Shown piece after piece: positions 3,524 to 36,687 of a stretch of 64,000 nucleotides of DNA. This DNA is from an uncultured bacterium. GTDB lineage: Bacteria; Patescibacteriota; Patescibacteriia; SG8-24; DYFX01. The translations under genes and the position numbers were made by a program. A model generated the notes under the pieces. The model saw nothing but the letters and a program-made list of their open reading frames with translations. It searched no databases and was not told the DNA's origin. The stretch is from positions 127,149 through 191,148 of the forward strand of contig CALCDZ010000003.1 of the NCBI GenBank assembly GCA_937900255.1. Reading direction: 5' to 3'. Within the stretch, counting starts at the first letter, position 1. Every line of letters begins with the position of its first letter.

Positions 3524-4414
3524 CTAGGAAGTGATTTCCATCTGTCGCAGGGCCTTGATGCGTTCGGCGATCGGCGGGTGCGTGGAGAACAGTCCGGAGA
3601 GCTTGTGTCCTGCGCCGAAGGGGTTCGCGATGTAGAGGTGCGCGGTGGCCGTCGATGCGCGGCGCATCGGCCCGTCATAGGCCGAAATCTTCTCGAGCGC
3701 GCGGGCCAGGCCGTCGGGAAAGCGCGTCAGGAGCGCGCCGGAGGAGTCGGCCAGATACTCGCGTCGCCTGGAGATCGCCAGCTGGATCAGCTGGGCCACG
3801 ATCGGCGCCAGGATCAGTCCGATGATGCCTAGGATCATGAGCGCCTCGCCGCCTTGGCGGTCGTTACGACGCCGTCCGCCCCCGAATGCCGAGGCTCTCA
3901 GGAACAGGTTGGCCATCATCGCGACGACGCCGACCAGCACGGCCACGACGGCCATCACCCGCGTGTCATAGTTCTTCACGTGGGAGAGCTCATGGGCCGC
4001 GACGCCTTCGAGCTCCGTCCGGTCGAGTCTTTCGAGGAGCCCGGTCGTGAATGCGATCGAGGCGAGCTCCGGCTTGCGGCCGGTGGCGAAGGCGTTCGGA
4101 GCGGGATCGTCGATGACGTAGATCTTCGGGGTCGGGATGCCGTCGGCGATGCAGAGGTTCTCGACGACGCGATACAGCTCCGGCGCGTCCTGCTTGGCGA
4201 TCTGTTTGGCCCCGGCGCCCCAGAGCGCCATCTTGTCCCCGGCGTAGTAGGAGACGCCCGCGGTCCCCAGGGAGTAGAGGAGCGCGATGAACACGATGCC
4301 GCCGCCCGCGTCGTAGTACCGGTCCAGCGCGTAACCGAGCCCGGCCACGAACAGGACGAAGACCGCGATCAGGAACGCGCTCCGGCGCTTATTGGACGTG
4401 ATTTGTGAATACAT
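3524..4414 (-). CDS. htpX: zinc metalloprotease HtpX (peptidase M48)
   Basis: HELSHVKNYD zinc-binding motif, N-terminal TM helices, 296 aa. Confidence 0.9.
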   Translation of the reverse strand: MYSQITSNKRRSAFLIAVFVLFVAGLGYALDRYYDAGGGIVFIALLYSLGTAGVSYYAGDKMALWGAGAKQIAKQDAPELYRVVENLCIADGIPTPKIYVIDDPAPNAFATGRKPELASIAFTTGLLERLDRTELEGVAAHELSHVKNYDTRVMAVVAVLVGVVAMMANLFLRASAFGGGRRRNDRQGGEALMILGIIGLILAPIVAQLIQLAISRRREYLADSSGALLTRFPDGLARALEKISAYDGPMRRASTATAHLYIANPFGAGHKLSGLFSTHPPIAERIKALRQMEITS

Positions 4415-22907: not shown

Positions 22908-22915
22908 CGCCGCGG

Positions 22916-22947
22916 CTCCCCGAAAGGGGAGCTTTCGTTTACGCTGA
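22916..22947 (+). repeat. 32-nt direct repeat copy 1 (CTCCCCGAAAGGGGAGCTTTCGTTTACGCTGA), also a hairpin/terminator for the VOC gene
   Basis: 31/32 identical to 23640-23671, differing only at the base after GGGGAG (C here, T in copy 2). It contains the hairpin CTCCCC-GAAA-GGGGAG. Confidence 0.7.
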
Positions 22948-23059
22948 AGACATGAAACCCAAGAAAAAACCTGCTCCCGCGGCCACTCCTTCACCGTCTC
23001 CGGCCCGTGCCCGAAGTGCTGGCCCGCTGGTGCCAAGAAGCACGCCGACAAAAAGAAAG

Positions 23060-23088: not shown

Positions 23089-23433
23089 TCAGGCCAGGAT
23101 GGCGCGCCTGTCTTCGAGGGTGAGGACCTTCTTGCGTTCAAGGACGTTTACGAGCCGGTTCATGTGACCGTCACGCTGGCCCAGTTTTTCGTCGAGGTAG
23201 TCCTTCGTGACCATGCCGGCCTTGATGCTCGTGACATCCGTCTTAAGGCCAGTCACATCCACCTTGATCCCGGTCACGTCCGCCTTCAGTCCTGCGATAT
23301 CGGACTTAAGCCCCGCGACATCGGATTTCAGTCCTGCAACGTCGGTCTTCATCCCTTCAATTTCGACTTGGACGCCCGAAAAGCCCTTGCTGACCGCGTC
23401 GAGGACATCGCTGATCGTGGGTTCTGCTTCCAT
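23089..23433 (-). CDS. coiled-coil protein with heptad-like (D/K)V(A/T)G(L/I)K(S/T)D repeats (DUF1640-like)
   Basis: 114 aa. Repeats DVAGLKSDVAGLKSDIAGLKADVTGIKVDVTGLKTDV. Followed by terminator 23060-23088. Confidence 0.5.
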   Translation of the reverse strand: MEAEPTISDVLDAVSKGFSGVQVEIEGMKTDVAGLKSDVAGLKSDIAGLKADVTGIKVDVTGLKTDVTSIKAGMVTKDYLDEKLGQRDGHMNRLVNVLERKKVLTLEDRRAILA

Positions 23434-23531
23434 AGAGGGTTCGCTTTCAAGGATTATAACACGGACCTACCAGAGACCGTTTCCGGCTGTCAATCCGTCC
23501 GAGCGGCAACCAGACCTGGAAATCTCGGTTT

Positions 23532-23559
23532 TGGGGTTCGAGTCCCCGCCGGTCCACCA
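23532..23559 (+). other. tRNA 3'-end-like fragment: T-arm (TGGGG-TTCGAGT-CCCCG) + 7-nt acceptor strand CCGGTCC + discriminator A + CCA. No matching 5' acceptor strand or D/anticodon arms found upstream
   Basis: Canonical T-loop TTCGAGT closed by a 5-bp stem and followed by a genomically encoded CCA. Only 5 of 7 pairs are possible with the best upstream candidate (GGACCTA, 23463-23469), which would also give a 97-nt molecule. Confidence 0.5.
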
Positions 23560-23564
23560 CCGCT

Positions 23565-23594
23565 TTGACAAGCATGCGGTGAAAGGCGTATCAT
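23565..23594 (+). promoter_or_regulatory. sigma70-like promoter (TTGACA-18 nt-TATCAT) for the NERD gene, starting 6 nt after the tRNA-like CCA
   Basis: Consensus -35. The -10 TATCAT matches 5 of 6 consensus positions. Confidence 0.55.
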
Positions 23595-23639
23595 GGACGA
23601 CATCCAGGTCTGGCCGCCTTGGCGAAAGCCGAGAGAAAA

Positions 23640-23671
23640 CTCCCCGAAAGGGGAGTTTTCGTTTACGCTGA
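23640..23671 (+). repeat. 32-nt direct repeat copy 2 (CTCCCCGAAAGGGGAGTTTTCGTTTACGCTGA) in the 5' leader of the NERD gene
   Basis: See copy 1. It lies between promoter 23565-23594 and ATG 23703. Confidence 0.7.
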
Positions 23672-23702
23672 GGGCGCGGATGTCGTCTCTGAAAGGAATG
23701 AT

Positions 23703-24377
23703 ATGGCCTATCTCAAGTGGCTGGAGGATGGATACGTAAAGAAACAATCAGGTAAGTACTTGTGGTGGGGCATGGGTGTCGCTGCGATCGGATACCTAGC
23801 CTATCGTGGTTTCATCGATGAACGACTTCCGTCGCCTCTGATCATTTTAGGAGGCACTGGCATTTTGATCGCGTACGTACATTTGCACGTGAAGTTCTTC
23901 AAGAAGCACTTGAAATTTGAAAAGGGTTATGAAGGTGAGATGGCCGCCGCAAGGGAGCTGTGCAAACTGCCGGAGGGCTATCTGGCTTTCCACGACGTAC
24001 AACTTCCCGGCAGGCACGGTAATATCGATTTTGTCGTAGTGACGCCTTCTCACGTGTACGCCGTAGAGGTCAAAAACATGAAGCGCCACATCCGCAAGTC
24101 CGACATCAGCCAGGCGAAACGGAACGCCCTTTTCTTGAATAGATGGCTTCAGCAAGAAGTGGGCCAGTACATCATCGTGCAGCCCGTGCTGGCATCCGTG
24201 AACAAGAAAATCCAGTTTCACAGCGGCATGACCGACGAGACCGGAGTGGTCCGCCTCGAGGATCTCAACGCATTCATCCTGGACAAATCAGGACGGTCGT
24301 ACGGCACCGGCCTGATGGTCCAGGTCGTACGGGTCCTGAAGAGATTTACGCCCGTTCACGAAGTCGTCTGCGACTAG
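23703..24377 (+). CDS. NERD (nuclease-related domain) protein with N-terminal TM region
   Basis: NERD signature FHDVQLPGRHGNIDFVVVTPSHVYAVEVKNMK. SD AAAGGA 6 nt before ATG 23703; the track ORF starts upstream at a TTG. Local GC content is clearly lower than the surroundings. Confidence 0.75.
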   Translation: MAYLKWLEDGYVKKQSGKYLWWGMGVAAIGYLAYRGFIDERLPSPLIILGGTGILIAYVHLHVKFFKKHLKFEKGYEGEMAAARELCKLPEGYLAFHDVQLPGRHGNIDFVVVTPSHVYAVEVKNMKRHIRKSDISQAKRNALFLNRWLQQEVGQYIIVQPVLASVNKKIQFHSGMTDETGVVRLEDLNAFILDKSGRSYGTGLMVQVVRVLKRFTPVHEVVCD

Positions 24378-24396
24378 GCTAAAAACAGCCAGAAAT

Positions 24397-24418
24397 GACC
24401 TCAAAACGAGGTCTTTTT
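24397..24418 (+). terminator. intrinsic terminator (GACCTC-AAAAC-GAGGTC + T5)
   Basis: Perfect 6-bp stem + TTTTT after the NERD stop. Confidence 0.7.
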
Positions 24419-24521
24419 GTACTCAGCCGAACCCTTGAAAAGAAAGGGTTTACGTGTTCGCCCTAAAGCGAGTAAAATCGGGTACACTGAATGAGGGAGT
24501 CTATCCCAAAAACTAATATAT

Positions 24522-25439
24522 ATGGCGATTCCCGACTTCCAGACCGTAATGTTACCGATTCTTCAGTTTGCAGGCGATGGGGAGGAGCATTCAATTCGAG
24601 AAGCAATTGAAAACATTTCTGAAAAATTTAATCTTAACCCCGAAGAAAGAAGCTTCGTATTGCCGAGCGGTCATCAATTCATTATCGACAATCGCGTAGG
24701 TTGGGCACGGACGTACATGAAAAAGGCTGGGCTACTGGATACCCCGAGGCGCGGTTTCTTCCGGATTACCGATACTGGAAAAAAAGTGCTCAGTGAAAAG
24801 CCTGAGGCAATTGACGTAAATTTTCTTCAACAATTTCCATCGTTCAATGAGTTCCGAACCTTTAGACGTGAAGAAGAGGGGGTACCGACTCGAGAGGGTT
24901 CAGAAGGATCTTTGACACAGACGCCCCAAGAACAGATTGAAGACGGCTACCAAAAGATTCGGGCAAATCTGGCGCAAGAGATATTAACTGCCATTAAAGG
25001 ATGCTCGCCCAGGTTTTTCGAGAAACTCGTTGTCGAGTTGCTGCTCGGGATGGGCTATGGAGGAGACATTGAAGGTGCGGGTAGGGCCATTGGTCAGAGT
25101 GGAGACGGTGGCATCGATGGTGTGATTAAAGAGGATAAGCTTGGTCTCGATGAAATTTACATTCAAGCAAAACGCTGGGAGGCATCAGTAGGCGCTCCGC
25201 TTGTAAGGAACTTTGTTGGTAGTTTGGCGGGCAGAAATGCGAACAAAGGTGTATTGATTACAACGTCGGATTTTACAAGAGATGCCCTAGACTATGTTAA
25301 GACAGTTTCGCATAAAGTGATACTGATAAACGGAGAAACCCTCGTCCGTTTGATGATTGATCATGGTATTGGTGTATCGAGAGTTGCGAACTATGAAGTG
25401 AAGAAAATTGACGCCGAATACTTCTCTGAAACAGAATAG
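24522..25439 (+). CDS. mrr: Mrr-family type IV restriction endonuclease (Mrr_N winged helix + Mrr_cat nuclease)
   Basis: N-terminal Mrr_N-like region and a C-terminal PD-(D/E)xK-type block (GGIDGVIKED.. DEIYIQAKRW). Markedly AT-rich compared with the flanks. Confidence 0.85.
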   Translation: MAIPDFQTVMLPILQFAGDGEEHSIREAIENISEKFNLNPEERSFVLPSGHQFIIDNRVGWARTYMKKAGLLDTPRRGFFRITDTGKKVLSEKPEAIDVNFLQQFPSFNEFRTFRREEEGVPTREGSEGSLTQTPQEQIEDGYQKIRANLAQEILTAIKGCSPRFFEKLVVELLLGMGYGGDIEGAGRAIGQSGDGGIDGVIKEDKLGLDEIYIQAKRWEASVGAPLVRNFVGSLAGRNANKGVLITTSDFTRDALDYVKTVSHKVILINGETLVRLMIDHGIGVSRVANYEVKKIDAEYFSETE

Positions 25440-25462
25440 AGTTTTTCTGTCCGAAACCTGTC

Positions 25463-28400
25463 ATGTCCACCTTCACCCACCTCCACACCCACTCCCACTA
25501 CAGCCTCCTCGAGGCCTTGCCTCAGGTCGACAAATTGGTGAAATTCGCCAAGAAACAGGGGGCGAAGGCGGTGGCGCTGACGGATAATGCCAACATGTTC
25601 GGGACGATCGAGTTCGTGCAGGAGTGCCAGAAGGCGGAGATCAAGCCGATCATCGGGTATGACGCCTACGTGGCGGTCGAGACGATCGACCTCAAGCGGC
25701 ATCGCATCGACGACAAGAACACCCGCTTGGTGCTCCTGGCCGAGAACATGGAGGGGTACAAGAACCTGATGAAGCTAGCGTCGGCGGCGTATTTGGACGG
25801 CTTCTACTATCGCCCGCGCATCGATCGCAACCTGCTGCGCCAGTACGGCAGGGGGTTGATCGCCTTGGCGGGGCCCCGCAGCGACATCGGCAAGTGGCTG
25901 ATCGACGGCGACGACGAGAAGGCTGAAGCGCGGCTGCGGGAGTATCTGGAGATCTTCGGCAAGGAGAACTTCTTCTTCGAGCTCGTCCATCAGCCGGACA
26001 GCCCCACGCAGAAGGAGGTGAACGATGCGTTCATCGCGCTCGGCAAGAAGGCCGGCGTCGGGGTGGTGGCGTCGCGGAACGTCTACTACCTGCGGCCGGA
26101 GGAATCCGAAGCGCGCAGCCTGCTCCTGTGCATCAAGGACAACCGCACGATGGAGGAGCGCGAACGGTCGGTCGCGGCCGACAACGACCTTTCGATGACC
26201 TCGCCGGAAGAGATGGAAGAGGCCTTCAAGGACGTCCCGGAGGCGCTCGAGAATAACGCGCGCATCGCGGAACGCTGCGACGTGAAGCTGGAGCTCGGCA
26301 AGTGGAACTTCCCGGTCTATGAGATCCCCGACGGCCTCACGGCCATCGAGTACCTGCGCAAGATCGCCTTCGAGCGCCTACCGCTCCTTTTGAAGCGCGA
26401 GCTGGATCAGAAGGAGATCGACCGCCTGAACTACGAGATCGACATCATCGAGAAGAAAGGCTACGCCACCTACTTCCTGGTGGTGGCCGACTACGGTTCA
26501 TGGGCCCGCAAGCAGGGGATCGTGCTGACCACGCGTGGATCGGCCGCCGGTTCTCTCATGGCGTACGCCATCGGCATCGTCACCGTGAACCCGCTCGACT
26601 ACAACCTGCCGTTCGAGCGCTTCCTGAACCCGCAGCGCCCGTCCGCGCCCGATGTCGATATGGACTTCGCCGACCATCGACGCGGCGAGGTGTTGGAATA
26701 CGTGAAAGGCAAGTACGGCGCCGACCACGTGGCCCAGATCTGCACCTTCGGGACGATGGCGGCGCGCGCTTCGATGCGCGACGTCGGCCGCGCGCTCGGG
26801 TACCCGGTGGCCTTCTGCGACCAGATCGCCAAGACCATCCCGTTCGGCCAGCAGGGCTTCGCCATGACGATCGACCGCGCGCTCGCCGAGACGCCCGACT
26901 TCAAGCGCCGTTACGACACCGAACCGGAAGTGAAGCGTCTCGTGGACTTGGCCAAGCAGATCGAAGGCAACGCGCGGCACTGCTCGGTGCACGCCGCCGG
27001 CGTCGTGATCTCCGACAAGCCGCTCGTGGAGTACACGCCGCTCCAGAGGGAAGCAGGCGGCGAGGCCATCATCACGCAGTACGAGATGCACGCGGTGGAA
27101 GACGCCGGCGTCCTCAAGATGGACTTCCTCGGCATCCGCAACCTTTCGATCCTGGAATACGCCATCGATCTCGTGAAGCGCACCAAGGGCGTCGAGGTCG
27201 ACTTGGTGCACATGGATTTGAAGGACAAGAAGACCTTCGAGATGCTGGCCGCCGGCAAGACGATGGGCATCTTCCAGCTGGGTGGCTCCGACGGCATGAC
27301 GCGCTTCCTGATGCAGCTCAAGCCGACTGTCATCGAGGACATCATGGCCATGGTGGCGCTCTACCGCCCGGGCCCGATCGACATCATCCCGGAGTTCATC
27401 AGGCGCAAGCAGAACCCGAAGCTGATCACCTACCTGGACCCGCGGATGAAGGACTACCTGCAGATGTCCTACGGCATGCTGGTGTACCAGGACGACGTGC
27501 TCATGACCGCCATCAACCTGGCGGGCTACGACTGGCTGGAAGCCGACAAGTTCCGCAAGGCGATGGGCAAGAAGATCCCGGAGGAGATGGCCAAGCAGGA
27601 GATCAAGTTCAAGGAAGGCTGCATCGCCCACGGGCTGACGCAAGCCAAGACCTTGGAGCTTTGGGAGCTGATCAAGCCGTTCGCGGCCTACGGCTTCAAC
27701 AAGGCGCATGCCGCTTCCTACGGCATCGTGGCCTACCAGACGGCCTACATGAAGGCCAACTTCCCGGCCGAATACATGACGGCCCTCATGACCGCCGAAT
27801 CCGGCGACCTCGACACCGTGGCCGAGGCGGTGAAGGAGTGCGAAGCGCTCGGCATCGCCGTGCTGCCGCCTGACGCAAACTCGAGCGAAGCCGGCTTCAC
27901 GTACATCGATGACCACCGGATCCGCTTCGGTCTCAGCACCATCAAGGGGCTGGGCATCGACACCGTGAACGCCATCATCGAGGAACGCAAGGCGGGCGGT
28001 TCCTTCAAGGACTTGTCCGATTTCGCGCGGCGTATCCCCGGCAAGGCCTTCAACAAGAAGTCGCTCGAATGCTTGGCGAAGTCCGGCGCGCTCGACGCCT
28101 TCGAGGAGCGCAACCGCATCGTCGAGAACATCGACGTGCTCACCACCTACAACAAGAACATGATCAAGGAGCGCGACAACGGGCAGTCCTCGCTCTTCGC
28201 GTTCGTGGTGCCGGACGGGACCGAACTCGTGCCGATGCTGGGGCTGCGCAACGTGCCGCCGGCCACCCGCAAGCAGAAGCTGGCGTGGGAGAAGGAACTG
28301 CTCGGGCTCTACGTCAGCGCGCATCCGTTCGAGGAGGTCGCCAAGGAGTTCGGCGACCTGCTCATGCCCATCAGCAAGGCGCTCGCGCTTCCGGAGAAGT

Positions 28401-28975
28401 CGCCGATCCGCGTGGGCGGCACCGTCACTTCCGTGAAGCAGATCGTCACCAAGAAGAGCGGAGAGCCGATGCTCTTCGCCACCATCACCGACCAGAGCGG
28501 TTCGGCCGAATGCCTGGTCTTCCCGAGCGTCTTCAAGGAGAACGGCGCCGCCTGGGTCGAAGGCGCCAACCTGGCGGTGACGGGGCGGCTTTCGCGCAAG
28601 GACGACGAACCGAAGTTCCTGGCCGACCGCGGCTGGTCGCTGACCGACGAGACGATCCCGGTCTACAAGAAGCACTTCAAGGGCGAGGCGATCAGTTCCG
28701 GCGAGATGCTGGACATGCACCGCCCCAAGGCGCGGGCTACCCAGGGCGAAGTGCGCATCAGCCTGCCTTCGAAGCTGCCGCCGTCAGCCGTCTCCGCCCT
28801 CAAGGCCGTATTGGCCAAGTTCCCCGGCAAGGCGCTCGTGACGCTCGACGTCCGCGCCGAAGGCGGTTTCCAGCGCGTCGAGACGTCGTTCCTGATCGAC
28901 CCGAGTCCTGACGCCGTGGCCGCCATCGAGAAGCAGGTCGGTATGGGCAACGTGAAGCTCTACCCCCCAGCCTGA
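25463..28975 (+). CDS. dnaE: DNA polymerase III alpha subunit
   Basis: 1170 aa. PHP domain (HLHTHSHYSLL), polymerase core, OB-fold C-terminus. Confidence 0.95.
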   Translation: MSTFTHLHTHSHYSLLEALPQVDKLVKFAKKQGAKAVALTDNANMFGTIEFVQECQKAEIKPIIGYDAYVAVETIDLKRHRIDDKNTRLVLLAENMEGYKNLMKLASAAYLDGFYYRPRIDRNLLRQYGRGLIALAGPRSDIGKWLIDGDDEKAEARLREYLEIFGKENFFFELVHQPDSPTQKEVNDAFIALGKKAGVGVVASRNVYYLRPEESEARSLLLCIKDNRTMEERERSVAADNDLSMTSPEEMEEAFKDVPEALENNARIAERCDVKLELGKWNFPVYEIPDGLTAIEYLRKIAFERLPLLLKRELDQKEIDRLNYEIDIIEKKGYATYFLVVADYGSWARKQGIVLTTRGSAAGSLMAYAIGIVTVNPLDYNLPFERFLNPQRPSAPDVDMDFADHRRGEVLEYVKGKYGADHVAQICTFGTMAARASMRDVGRALGYPVAFCDQIAKTIPFGQQGFAMTIDRALAETPDFKRRYDTEPEVKRLVDLAKQIEGNARHCSVHAAGVVISDKPLVEYTPLQREAGGEAIITQYEMHAVEDAGVLKMDFLGIRNLSILEYAIDLVKRTKGVEVDLVHMDLKDKKTFEMLAAGKTMGIFQLGGSDGMTRFLMQLKPTVIEDIMAMVALYRPGPIDIIPEFIRRKQNPKLITYLDPRMKDYLQMSYGMLVYQDDVLMTAINLAGYDWLEADKFRKAMGKKIPEEMAKQEIKFKEGCIAHGLTQAKTLELWELIKPFAAYGFNKAHAASYGIVAYQTAYMKANFPAEYMTALMTAESGDLDTVAEAVKECEALGIAVLPPDANSSEAGFTYIDDHRIRFGLSTIKGLGIDTVNAIIEERKAGGSFKDLSDFARRIPGKAFNKKSLECLAKSGALDAFEERNRIVENIDVLTTYNKNMIKERDNGQSSLFAFVVPDGTELVPMLGLRNVPPATRKQKLAWEKELLGLYVSAHPFEEVAKEFGDLLMPISKALALPEKSPIRVGGTVTSVKQIVTKKSGEPMLFATITDQSGSAECLVFPSVFKENGAAWVEGANLAVTGRLSRKDDEPKFLADRGWSLTDETIPVYKKHFKGEAISSGEMLDMHRPKARATQGEVRISLPSKLPPSAVSALKAVLAKFPGKALVTLDVRAEGGFQRVETSFLIDPSPDAVAAIEKQVGMGNVKLYPPA

Positions 28976-36025: not shown

Positions 36026-36054
36026 TTGCCGGTCCCCGTGCCTGTTGCTAGAAT
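36026..36054 (+). promoter_or_regulatory. strong sigma70-like promoter TTGCCG-17 nt-TAGAAT, with no protein-coding gene downstream on this strand
   Basis: Near-consensus hexamers with optimal 17-nt spacing. The next plus-strand ORFs are only antisense artefacts. Confidence 0.6.
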
Positions 36055-36060
36055 CCGGTA

Positions 36061-36222
36061 GTCCGATAAGGGGCTGGAGGGATTCTTTCGTCGAACGGCT
36101 ACTTCTCACGCCGCAGGACGATGGATTTCTCAGAGGGACGGGCGCGCCTCGTCGCGGTCGTCCATGACCCTCCGGCCCCTTATCGGAAAACGAAACCCCG
36201 CTCATCGAGAGCGGGGTTTCGT
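36061..36222 (+). ncRNA. candidate small RNA (about 125-160 nt). Its 5' and 3' ends form a 19-bp helix (CCGATAAGGGGCTGGAGGG / CCCTCCGGCCCCTTATCGG, one G-U), followed by hairpin AACCCCGCTC-ATCGA-GAGCGGGGTT. Class not assigned
   Basis: Seen directly: promoter 36026-36054, then the 36063-36081 / 36168-36186 perfect long-range pairing enclosing about 86 nt with an internal helix GGACGA/TCGTCC, then a terminator hairpin (36194-36218). The G-U pair (T36075-G36174) is only compatible with plus-strand RNA. Confidence 0.45.
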
Positions 36223-36687
36223 TCATCCTTTCAGCCAGCGTTTGAAGCGGCTCAACAGTCCGGATTTTTGGGCAGGCGCCTGTTGCCGCGCCTTTTCCGC
36301 CTCTCCGGACTCCTTCCAGCCGCGTTCAAGCTGCGCATCATGGAAGGCGTCCATTTTTTTCGTGTCCTCGGCACGATTCAGCTCAGCCCGCGCCTTCAGA
36401 AGCTCCTTGCGCTCCTTGGCTGCCTGCGCCGCCATCTGCGCTTCGATCCGGGGTTTTTCGATGGCTTGCGCCTCGCCTTCCGTGATTTCCTCGAGGTCCG
36501 ATTCGTCCAGGAGTTCCGCCCCTTCGTTGGCGGCTTGGACGGCTTCGATCAATCCGTCTCGGACGGACGCTTCCGCGACATCATCATCCGATACGATCTT
36601 GAGCCGGTCCTTGGAGTGCGCACCCTTGCCCTTGGCCACCTCGTCTCCGATCGGAAGCTTTTCCGCCGCGTTTCCTCGCATAGTCAT
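36223..36687 (-). CDS. hypothetical acidic coiled-coil protein (154 aa)
   Basis: ORF with stop overlapping the gatB region (4-nt gap). Terminator hairpin 36194-36218 downstream with U-run on the minus strand. Confidence 0.5.
   Translation of the reverse strand: MTMRGNAAEKLPIGDEVAKGKGAHSKDRLKIVSDDDVAEASVRDGLIEAVQAANEGAELLDESDLEEITEGEAQAIEKPRIEAQMAAQAAKERKELLKARAELNRAEDTKKMDAFHDAQLERGWKESGEAEKARQQAPAQKSGLLSRFKRWLKG

Follow-up and report, generated by a model that had tools for sequence, protein, structure and literature searches.

Does the lone tRNA-like 3' end that lies beside low-GC, defence-type genes in an uncultured member of the Patescibacteria (Minisyncoccota) mark an island that once entered a tRNA gene? 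The piece occupies positions 23532-23559 of a 64,000-nucleotide (nt) stretch of contig CALCDZ010000003.1 (hereafter the window, meaning the whole of the DNA analyzed), upstream of genes for a NERD-domain protein and an Mrr-family type IV restriction endonuclease; the original prediction took it for the attL/attR scar of an integrated island. We conclude that it is probably part of something else: a damaged copy, at 23480-23671, of an RNA unit specific to a patescibacterial lineage, beside which the NERD and Mrr genes were acquired independently, with no integration into a tRNA gene. The best-supported reading of the unit itself is that of a relative of transfer-messenger RNA (tmRNA) that would lack a coding sequence (CDS), retaining the tRNA-like domain alone, and that would be accompanied by a dedicated, base-paired partner or leader RNA.

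The tRNA-like piece reads TGGGG-TTCGAGT-CCCCG (T arm), CCGGTCC (3' strand of the acceptor stem), A (discriminator) and CCA, as had been described; its 3' end, UCCACCA, has U at position 70 and is of the type found in tRNA-Ala and tmRNA. The consensus promoter reported after the CCA is likewise present, 5 nt downstream (TTGACA-18-TATCAT, 23565-23594, 11 of 12 positions). The claim that no 5' half can be built also holds: ARAGORN calls no tRNA and no tmRNA in the 64-kilobase (kb) window, and Rfam gives no match there at its gathering score, the sole match at relaxed thresholds being a mascRNA-like minihelix. The description of the piece as a remnant without a 5' end thus stands; its description as an island scar does not, as set out below.

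Homologs were sought with exact 24-27-mers from the 3' end in one genome per species, and a scan of metagenomes added contig L049. The 24-mer matched tRNA-Lys(CTT) genes in Coriobacteriia, tRNA-Ala(CGC) genes in Dormibacterota and Chloroflexia, one tmRNA, several genuine 3'-half repeats of tRNA-Ala(CGC), and one contig of the Minisyncoccota, L031, in which conservation with the window extends beyond the 3' end to ∼180 nt. Homology over this length rules out a chance match or a generic tRNA fragment. A covariance model (R1), built from three sequences (the window, L031 and L049) and run on contigs fetched via homologs of the neighboring DUF1801 gene, found matches beyond its training set, at 53-119 bits, in L062/L063, L072-L074, L075 and L078. 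By k-mer and covariance model together, the whole unit is matched in L031, L049, L062/L063, L072-L074, L075 and L078 (53-218 bits), and window segment 23483-23671 is homologous in its entirety to these elements of six other lineages. Two further contigs, L001 and L002, are 100% identical to the window, hence uninformative as near relatives with variation. A viral origin of the unit was considered and rejected, as a pattern scan of IMG/VR returned 11 matches, all unrelated.

In these relatives the unit opens with a motif, (CTC)TTGCRT or TTGACA followed after ∼18 nt by TGCTAGGAC, whose end lies 8-9 nt before the first base of the tRNA-like domain (G1); this spacing makes it a likely promoter (P1), with a predicted start at or just before G1. 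The domain itself is 70-75 nt long and comprises the 5' acceptor strand, a D-loop analog whose GG lies 8-10 nt past that strand, a 14-nt strand (H5') that fills the position of the anticodon arm, of which there is none, a 9-10-nt linker containing a segment designated X1, the T arm and ACCA. The 5' acceptor strand is found 33-37 nt upstream of the T arm in every relative and pairs perfectly, including G3:U70 (GGGCCGG/CCGGUCC, GGGCCCG/CGGGUCC, GGGGGGG/CCUCUCC, GGGCCGA/UCGGUCC), with compensatory change at 4 of 7 positions; G3:U70, A73 and the encoded CCA are invariant across the six relatives. The T loop (UUCGAGU, UUCGAUU or UUCGACC) sits on a covarying 5-base pair (bp) stem, and the stem of a hairpin that takes in the CA of the CCA covaries as well (CACCGC/GCGGUG, CACGGC/GCCGUG, ACCGGG.../...CCGGU). 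This hairpin carries a second promoter, P2, apparently a strong one, which has a −35 box TTGACA that is invariant in all lineages and, 17-18 nt on, a −10 box of the form TAnnnT (TATCAT, TATGCT, TACCAT, TATTCT, TATCCT, TACTGT). The ∼65-nt partner RNA beyond it carries a strand complementary to H5' (H3'), which starts ∼7 nt past the −10 box, then a small hairpin and a segment X' complementary to X1. Its last parts are a strong terminator of the intrinsic type, AAAACUCCCC-GAAA-GGGGAGUUUU, with GUUUACR as a conserved tail; the ATG of the next gene follows ∼20 nt past the terminator hairpin.

Covariation marks this arrangement as an RNA under selection. The helix formed by H5' and H3' (helix H, 13-15 bp) differs in sequence in each lineage and is always complementary, both partners having changed in 12 of its 14 pairs. 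When helix H is taken together with the T arm, the CCA hairpin, the small hairpin and the terminator, which make up the five helices of the model, 96% of alignment cells pair, versus at most 52% when the partners are slid against each other, and G:U pairs within the helices place the RNA on the + strand. The X1:X' complementarity (7-9 nt) occupies fixed positions in all six lineages examined; singly it reaches P values of 0.006-0.08 against shuffles, and jointly none of 20,000 shuffles attains the observed total (P<5e-5). Cofolding of the tRNA-like half with the partner half predicts stable intermolecular pairing (ddG, the free-energy gain, −6 to −18 kcal/mol). H5' and H3' were also considered as terminal inverted repeats of a miniature inverted-repeat transposable element, a reading discarded since the arms differ between copies yet stay complementary, and G:U pairs appear only when the + strand is read. 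A switch in which the T arm and the terminator hairpin would exchange strands was considered too, and dropped for want of covariation in L075.

The window copy, truncated at its 5' end, consists of the following parts, identified by sequence and by alignment to the relatives.

23480..23559, + strand: 5'-truncated tRNA-like domain
23480-23486, + strand: residual 5' acceptor strand TTTCCGG (GGGCCGG in relatives), with an 8-nt insertion after it
23509-23522, + strand: H5'
23523-23529, + strand: X1
23532-23548, + strand: T arm
23549-23555, + strand: 3' acceptor strand
23556-23559, + strand: ACCA
23558..23594, + strand: hairpin CACCGC/GCGGTG with promoter P2 (23558-23563 pairs with 23576-23581, taking in the CA of CCA)
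23565-23570 and 23589-23594, + strand: −35 box TTGACA and −10 box TATCAT of P2
23601..23671, + strand: partner/leader RNA
23601-23614, + strand: H3', pairing with H5'
23618-23633, + strand: GAAA hairpin
23628-23634, + strand: X', pairing with X1
23635-23660, + strand: terminator (copy B of a repeated module, see below)
23661-23671, + strand: conserved tail GTTTACGCTGA

BLAST homology to the relatives' units sets in at ∼23500-23510, and the multiple alignment carries conservation back to the CCGG of the acceptor strand, at ∼23483. At the positions that would partner U70, C71 and C72 the window has TTT in place of GGG, the 8-nt insertion comes next, and the P1 motif is absent upstream. The loss of P1 and of acceptor positions 1-3 falls exactly where the 5' end of a minus-strand gene for a 114-amino acid protein abuts the unit. 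To judge from these changes, the tRNA-like domain of the window cannot form an alanine-type acceptor stem and lacks a recognizable promoter, and this copy is most likely dead as an aminoacylatable RNA. The damage has spared P2, H3', X', terminator and tail, and the NERD gene fills the slot directly behind the leader. An inverted repeat that had been overlooked, 23505-23520 with 23603-23618, brackets the tRNA-like piece and its promoter. A second inverted repeat is specific to the window: 15 nt at 23591-23605, the bases following the P2 −10 box, are 87% complementary to 23678-23692, just past the leader terminator and 11 nt before the ribosome-binding site of the NERD gene, so that the repeat encloses the whole leader.

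Several features argue that the unit is likely homologous to tmRNA rather than to tRNA-Ala. The Rfam tmRNA model (RF00023) aligns globally to the 70-75-nt RNAs with its central 328 positions deleted, scoring 27.3 bits in L072 (E = 8e-8), 24.1 bits in L075 (E = 1.8e-6) and 15.9 bits in L049. An acceptor stem with G3:U70, A73 and CCA is present in the six relatives and missing from the window (UUU at positions 1-3); a canonical T loop and a D-loop analog are found, and the RF00023 alignment agrees with both. A tag reading frame with resume and stop codons is lacking, as only 33-37 nt separate the acceptor strand from the T arm. The partner RNA was considered as its carrier and rejected: frames there are broken by insertions and deletions between lineages, and no tag-like C-terminus occurs. 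ARAGORN calls no tmRNA at the unit in L031 or L049, and no smpB gene lies in the window or at the relatives' loci. A permuted two-piece tmRNA was likewise rejected: no 5' acceptor strand (GGRCCGG) lies downstream of the CCA, the strand in relatives lying upstream, and the Rfam models of permuted tmRNA give an 8-bit partial match only.

Forms of tmRNA without a CDS have precedents. Mycobacteriophage DS6A carries a gene with the tRNA-like domain only, and tmRNA is inhibited by a molecule of similar kind, which may act by titrating SmpB (PMC4131195). A 2025 tmRNA database lists bacterial 'Standard NoCDS' forms only in Patescibacteria and undetermined taxa, and one patescibacterial genus may be without a tag frame (PMC11915505). 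With these forms, along with ∼65-bp plastid forms and mitochondrial tmRNA (PMC4131195, PMC11915505), the unit shares an acceptor stem with G3:U70, A73-CCA, a T arm, a D-loop analog and the lack of a tag frame. It differs from them in the 13-15-nt strand at the anticodon-arm position, whose covarying partner lies past the CCA behind an internal promoter, in the second pairing (X1:X'), and in the terminator of the partner RNA, 20 nt before the next gene; compared by description only, the accounts of CDS-less forms mention neither the partner helix nor X1:X', and neither an internal promoter nor a place 20 nt ahead of a gene. The two-piece permuted tmRNAs of Alphaproteobacteria, some Betaproteobacteria and Cyanobacteria also have a CCA-ending part, an intervening sequence and a second piece, which in the unit, as in those RNAs, is base-paired at the position of helix P2 (the tmRNA helix, not the promoter). 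Unlike them, the unit has its 5' acceptor strand ahead of the T arm instead of behind the CCA, and lacks both the pseudoknots PK1-PK4 and a tag frame. T-box and other tRNA-linked leaders likewise involve a tRNA-shaped RNA that pairs with a terminator-containing leader just before a gene. In contrast to these, the 'tRNA' of the unit is a dedicated, adjacent mimic that pairs through 13-15 nt plus 7 nt, not through codon-anticodon and NCCA contacts; no alternative antiterminator structure was found in the unit, and Rfam gives no T-box match.

The genes beyond the unit have a history of their own. The right-hand part of the locus is laid out as follows.

23703..24377, + strand: NERD-domain gene (224 amino acids, hydrophobic N-terminus; GC 0.53, GC at third codon positions (GC3) 0.68)
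24397-24413, + strand: terminator of the NERD gene
24449..24494, + strand: native dnaE promoter and 5' untranslated region (UTR) block, TTTACGTGTTCGCCC...GTAAAATCGGGTACACT, between the NERD terminator and Mrr
24522..25439, + strand: Mrr-family type IV restriction endonuclease gene (Mrr_N and Mrr_cat; GC 0.46, GC3 0.44)
25463..28975, + strand: dnaE, the right-hand native boundary, with altered first codons (MSTF versus MPAKF/MPARF in relatives)

Both gene identities proposed earlier were borne out by Pfam, and that of Mrr also by PADLOC. The NERD gene, which starts at the ATG at 23703, encodes the domain at E = 5e-15 (56.4 bits against a cut-off of 22.1), with a D...ExK motif (IDF...VEVK) read by eye in the translation; it belongs to no defined PADLOC system, showing weak Cas4 and PDC matches only. 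The Mrr protein matches Mrr_N (E = 2.2e-32) and Mrr_cat (E = 8.3e-36), the PADLOC model mREase_IV covers its full length (residues 1-302, E = 2.3e-87), and a motif of D...QxK type (GGIDG...IQAKR) was again seen by eye; membership of this family suggests modification-dependent cleavage. Both are ordinary members of their families, unusual only in placement, NERD behind the leader of the unit and Mrr in the dnaE 5'UTR. The low GC content attributed to the two genes was reproduced by calculation, at 0.53 and 0.46 against a window mean of 0.627 (standard deviation 0.035); their GC3 values compare with 0.85 ± 0.03 in the window, and outside NERD and Mrr no 700-nt interval of the 64 kb drops below 0.53 GC. 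This foreign composition supports the earlier view that they are horizontally acquired, nuclease-type, defence-like genes. The statement that each has its own terminator is correct for NERD and fails for Mrr, which has no terminator-like site and whose stop codon lies 23 nt from the dnaE ATG.

Between the two genes lies a native element that had been overlooked. A block homologous to 24449-24494 (∼45 nt) ends 7 nt before the dnaE ATG in L062, L067, L073 and L078, so that Mrr, downstream of this block in the window, sits inside the dnaE 5'UTR and would have to be co-transcribed with dnaE. As the native promoter splits NERD from Mrr, the two appear to be separate insertions rather than a single islet; their GC3 values also differ strongly from each other.

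The locus is variable in the relatives too. The contigs share a backbone, PheS-PheT-...-rhodanese-HU-[variable small genes]-dnaE, in which the small genes include DUF1801, OmdA, an alkyltransferase-like gene (DNA_binding_1; ATL), glyoxalase, GNAT, DUF1697, DUF2200 and RibD_C. Behind the unit lies ATL in L078 and L062, an ATL fragment in L031, DUF1697 in L072 and, after a second module, nfo in L049. The simplest state is that of L078 (unit-ATL-DUF1801-dnaE promoter-dnaE), which is without the glyoxalase gene, the 114-amino acid gene, NERD and Mrr; L078, L062 and L072 all carry a complete unit in the matching chromosomal region without NERD or Mrr. In L061, P1 and the tRNA-like domain are cleanly deleted and the leader persists before ATL. 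The position directly before dnaE holds an Mrr_cat-nSTAND3 gene in L062, a HATPase_c gene in L073 and, in L067, a 93-amino acid gene alone with no Pfam match. These differing occupants show the position to be variable, and the stretch from the unit to dnaE appears to be a hotspot that holds defence-type genes in some relatives.

What might the intact unit do? In the mechanism we propose, P1 would transcribe the 70-75-nt tRNA-like domain from G1, ending in the encoded CCA, and P2 a ∼65-nt partner RNA; H3' would dock on H5' and X' on X1, giving a two-piece or pseudoknotted particle that would resemble the tmRNA tRNA-like domain plus helix P2 of tmRNA, without the message. The window copy would have lost P1 and acceptor positions 1-3 where the 114-amino acid gene now lies, keeping promoter P2 and a leader that would now head the NERD gene; NERD and Mrr would have come independently into the hotspot between the unit and dnaE, Mrr lodging in the dnaE 5'UTR. 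On function, the idea we favor, though we stop short of calling it probable, is that the unit would be a tRNA-mimicking leader or riboregulator, governing either read-through into the cassette downstream or that cassette's stability; ancestrally this cassette appears to be the alkyltransferase-like repair gene. The idea is favored because the unit has a fixed spot ahead of a start codon, because leader-only versions exist, and because the domain has been lost repeatedly while the leader persists. Action on the SmpB/ribosome-rescue axis, as a CDS-less tmRNA or a decoy, was considered because the alanine identity set and CCA are strictly conserved; it seems a doubtful, secondary option. More speculative, and on balance unlikely, is a tmRNA-derived two-part riboregulator or a new kind of non-permuted, tag-less two-piece tmRNA. 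In such a riboregulator, an alanine-identity domain with its own promoter would dock via two covarying helices on the 5' end of the adjacent leader, coupling a translation-linked signal (candidates being whether the domain is charged, whether SmpB or EF-Tu is bound to it, and whether the RNA is chemically damaged) to read-through into accessory DNA-repair or defence cassettes.

Some observations weigh against the reading of a damaged, tmRNA-related unit. All RF00023 scores fall below the gathering score of 47, and there is no tag reading frame. P1, P2, CCA processing and the two-piece state are all inferred. The sample comprises seven lineages including the window, all of them metagenomic contigs, and as most lineages were reached via one neighbor gene, DUF1801, the genomic context observed is biased. 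Besides its deletion in L061, the unit was not found in the parts of the L067 and L071 genomes examined, and its absence from such close relatives argues against an essential role. An old, dead relic should also decay, and in the window no flaw is seen in helix H, X1:X', the T arm or the CCA hairpin, implying either that the truncation is recent or that the remainder works from another promoter. The latter would make the window copy still functional, with the T arm, H, X1:X' and the leader folding as a cis-regulatory 5' element of NERD, transcribed from P2 and/or an unrecognized upstream promoter. Indeed, the T arm, P2 and the terminator are intact, as are the CCA hairpin, helix H (11 bp + 3) and X1:X', whose 7 bp make the best such pairing in any lineage; the predicted fold has z = −5.2 versus shuffles, and the window-specific inverted repeat would clamp the leader. 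However, H5' and X1 lie upstream of P2 and so would be absent from its transcript, the conserved P1 motif is missing, what the window has lost (G1-G3 and G3:U70) is what every relative has kept, and the L061 leader persists without any tRNA-like domain; we regard a functional copy as rather improbable. Very improbable, in our estimation, is that the unit is the cell's own sole tmRNA, two-piece and tag-less, rescuing ribosomes with SmpB. A tmRNA-type acceptor and T arm with G3:U70, the 'Standard NoCDS' entries in Patescibacteria together with the genus possibly without a tag frame (PMC11915505), and the parallel that two-piece maturation would offer to permuted tmRNAs speak for it. But the unit is too easily lost for such a role (deleted in L061, truncated in the window, not found in the parts of L067 and L071 examined), it sits among accessory cassettes with no smpB nearby in the window or the relatives' loci, and a standard tmRNA is present in 5252 of 6765 Patescibacteria genomes.

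The island hypothesis, under which 23532-23559 would be the displaced 3' end (attR/attL) of a tRNA or tmRNA gene and NERD and Mrr an island whose integrase was later lost, draws on the foreign composition of the two genes, on 24-30 nt of 3' identity to real tRNA-Lys(CTT), tRNA-Ala(CGC) and one tmRNA of other phyla, and on genuine tRNA-Ala(CGC) 3'-half repeats, away from or without a called intact gene, in Dormibacterota and Chloroflexia contigs. As in Islander-type islands, a lone tRNA-like 3' end stands beside foreign, defence-type genes. Unlike such islands, the window lacks a direct repeat of that end, an intact target gene and an integrase, and native sequence precedes the foreign genes. 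A 25-mer of the 3' end is single-copy in the 64 kb at up to 3 mismatches, with no tRNA or tmRNA called there by ARAGORN or Rfam as a possible target; no tyrosine integrase was seen among the neighborhood gene calls and Pfam matches or in 20 further large open reading frames (ORFs), not all small ORFs having been scanned. Native, conserved sequence (P2, H3', X' and terminator) fills the 110 nt between the CCA and the foreign genes, so the foreign DNA does not abut the tRNA-like end; a native dnaE promoter stands inside the supposed islet; relatives without NERD or Mrr have the same arrangement; and covariation marks the element as a selected RNA. In islands at tRNA genes, by the usual geometry, the island lies upstream of the displaced 3' fragment, not downstream, and on this general reasoning the orientation here is wrong. 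The tRNA-like end and the Mrr/dnaE junction share 7 nt (GTCCACC), which we put down to chance, native sequence lying between the two sites. With repeat, target gene, integrase and abutting foreign DNA all failing, we consider integration at a tRNA gene hardly tenable. The tRNA-Ala(CGC) 3'-half copies themselves, which run from the anticodon arm to the discriminator in metagenome-assembled contigs of Dormibacterota and Chloroflexia (L020 at 5557, L021 at 3633, L026 at 5083 and 7815, L003/L022), lie at least 2 kb from the nearest ARAGORN tRNA or at loci with no tRNA called. In L021 the intact gene ends at 1665 and the second 3' half is at 3633, each with similar sequence downstream. In contrast to the window, these copies look like genuine tandem att repeats of islands.

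Returning to the damaged tmRNA-related unit, its terminator belongs to a module that has a second copy at this locus; this copy and the gene that adjoins the 5' end of the unit are laid out as follows.

22914..22949, + strand: terminator module copy A (hairpin CTCCCCGAAAGGGGAG and tail TTTCGTTTACGCTGA), directly after a glyoxalase-family gene and 97% identical to copy B
23089..23433, − strand: 114-amino acid protein gene with heptad repeats (DVAGLKS, DIAGLKA and DVTGIKV types), GC3 0.74

The 114-amino acid protein has weak coiled-coil-type matches only (LPP; PHROGs of phage minor head or tail-needle proteins), and its gene, which is absent at the relatives' loci, abuts the RNA unit with its 5' end at the site expected for P1. 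The two module copies form a 34-nt direct repeat of terminator hairpin and tail (22916-22949 and 23640-23673) that had gone unremarked. Modules without a tRNA-like domain flank other small genes in L071 (three), L067 (two), L075 and L061; some consist of promoter, hairpin and the same terminator, others of the terminator alone, and window copy A is among these modules. Small accessory genes are repeatedly bordered by the hairpin CTCCCC-GAAA-GGGGAG with tail TTTTCGTTTACR (L071 at 1583, 5159 and 5762; L067 at 3651 and 6180; L061 at 10753 and 11461; L049 at 503 and 604; L075 at 92-234), with the next ATG exactly 20 nt downstream in several cases; some copies have a promoter of their own and a small GAAA hairpin, and gene order between modules is shuffled among relatives. 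As it occurs just twice in 64 kb, it is not a generic terminator but possibly a marker of cassette boundaries or of a shared leader. An identity with integron attC sites was rejected: there is no IntI, and the tail GTTTACR has no inverse core upstream (R''/R' RYYYAAC...GTTRRRY). Unlike in an integron cassette array, the modules do not lie between every pair of genes. On the minus strand of L031 (∼960-805 and 85-1), a C-terminal ATL fragment lies directly behind the unit and a full copy begins 700 nt on; a further motif, CCCTTTGGTRCCAGGYACSGATA, is found at gene borders in L031 and in L061 (11340-11362).

Elsewhere the window carries ordinary chromosomal genes (ClpB, PheST, ThrRS, MiaA, GatB, ThyX, L1, GyrB, FtsW and RF1). 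The sole mobile-element gene seen in it is an ORF of 459 amino acids at 47105-48484 (+ strand) with a weak IS110/IS116/IS902-family transposase domain (E = 1.6e-6), 22 kb from the tRNA-like piece. At 36027-36225 (+ strand), between convergent genes, lies an unannotated, strongly structured locus resembling a small RNA gene, with a promoter-like TTGCCG-17-TAGAAT, an RNA of ∼130 nt and a strong terminator. A 20-bp helix (36062-36081 with 36167-36186) closes this RNA, whose minimum free energy is −103.8 kcal/mol (z = −8.6 versus shuffles) and which matches no Rfam family.

For annotation, the locus shows how low-GC defence genes with a solitary tRNA-like 3' end next to them can mimic a textbook island scar, here wrongly; the same misreading would put 'islands' in the wrong places in Patescibacteria genomes. 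As regards genome evolution, the stretch from the unit to dnaE would be a hotspot for defence-type genes whose occupants differ by relative, and a restriction gene can apparently lodge inside the 5'UTR of an essential replication gene. The intact unit would represent a compact, strongly covarying tmRNA derivative without a message, furnished with a dedicated partner and an internal promoter, and with it a natural test case for roles of tRNA-like domains besides tagging, a question raised by the DS6A and organelle forms. The covariance model offers a concrete means to ask whether the 'NoCDS' tmRNAs of Patescibacteria match this unit.

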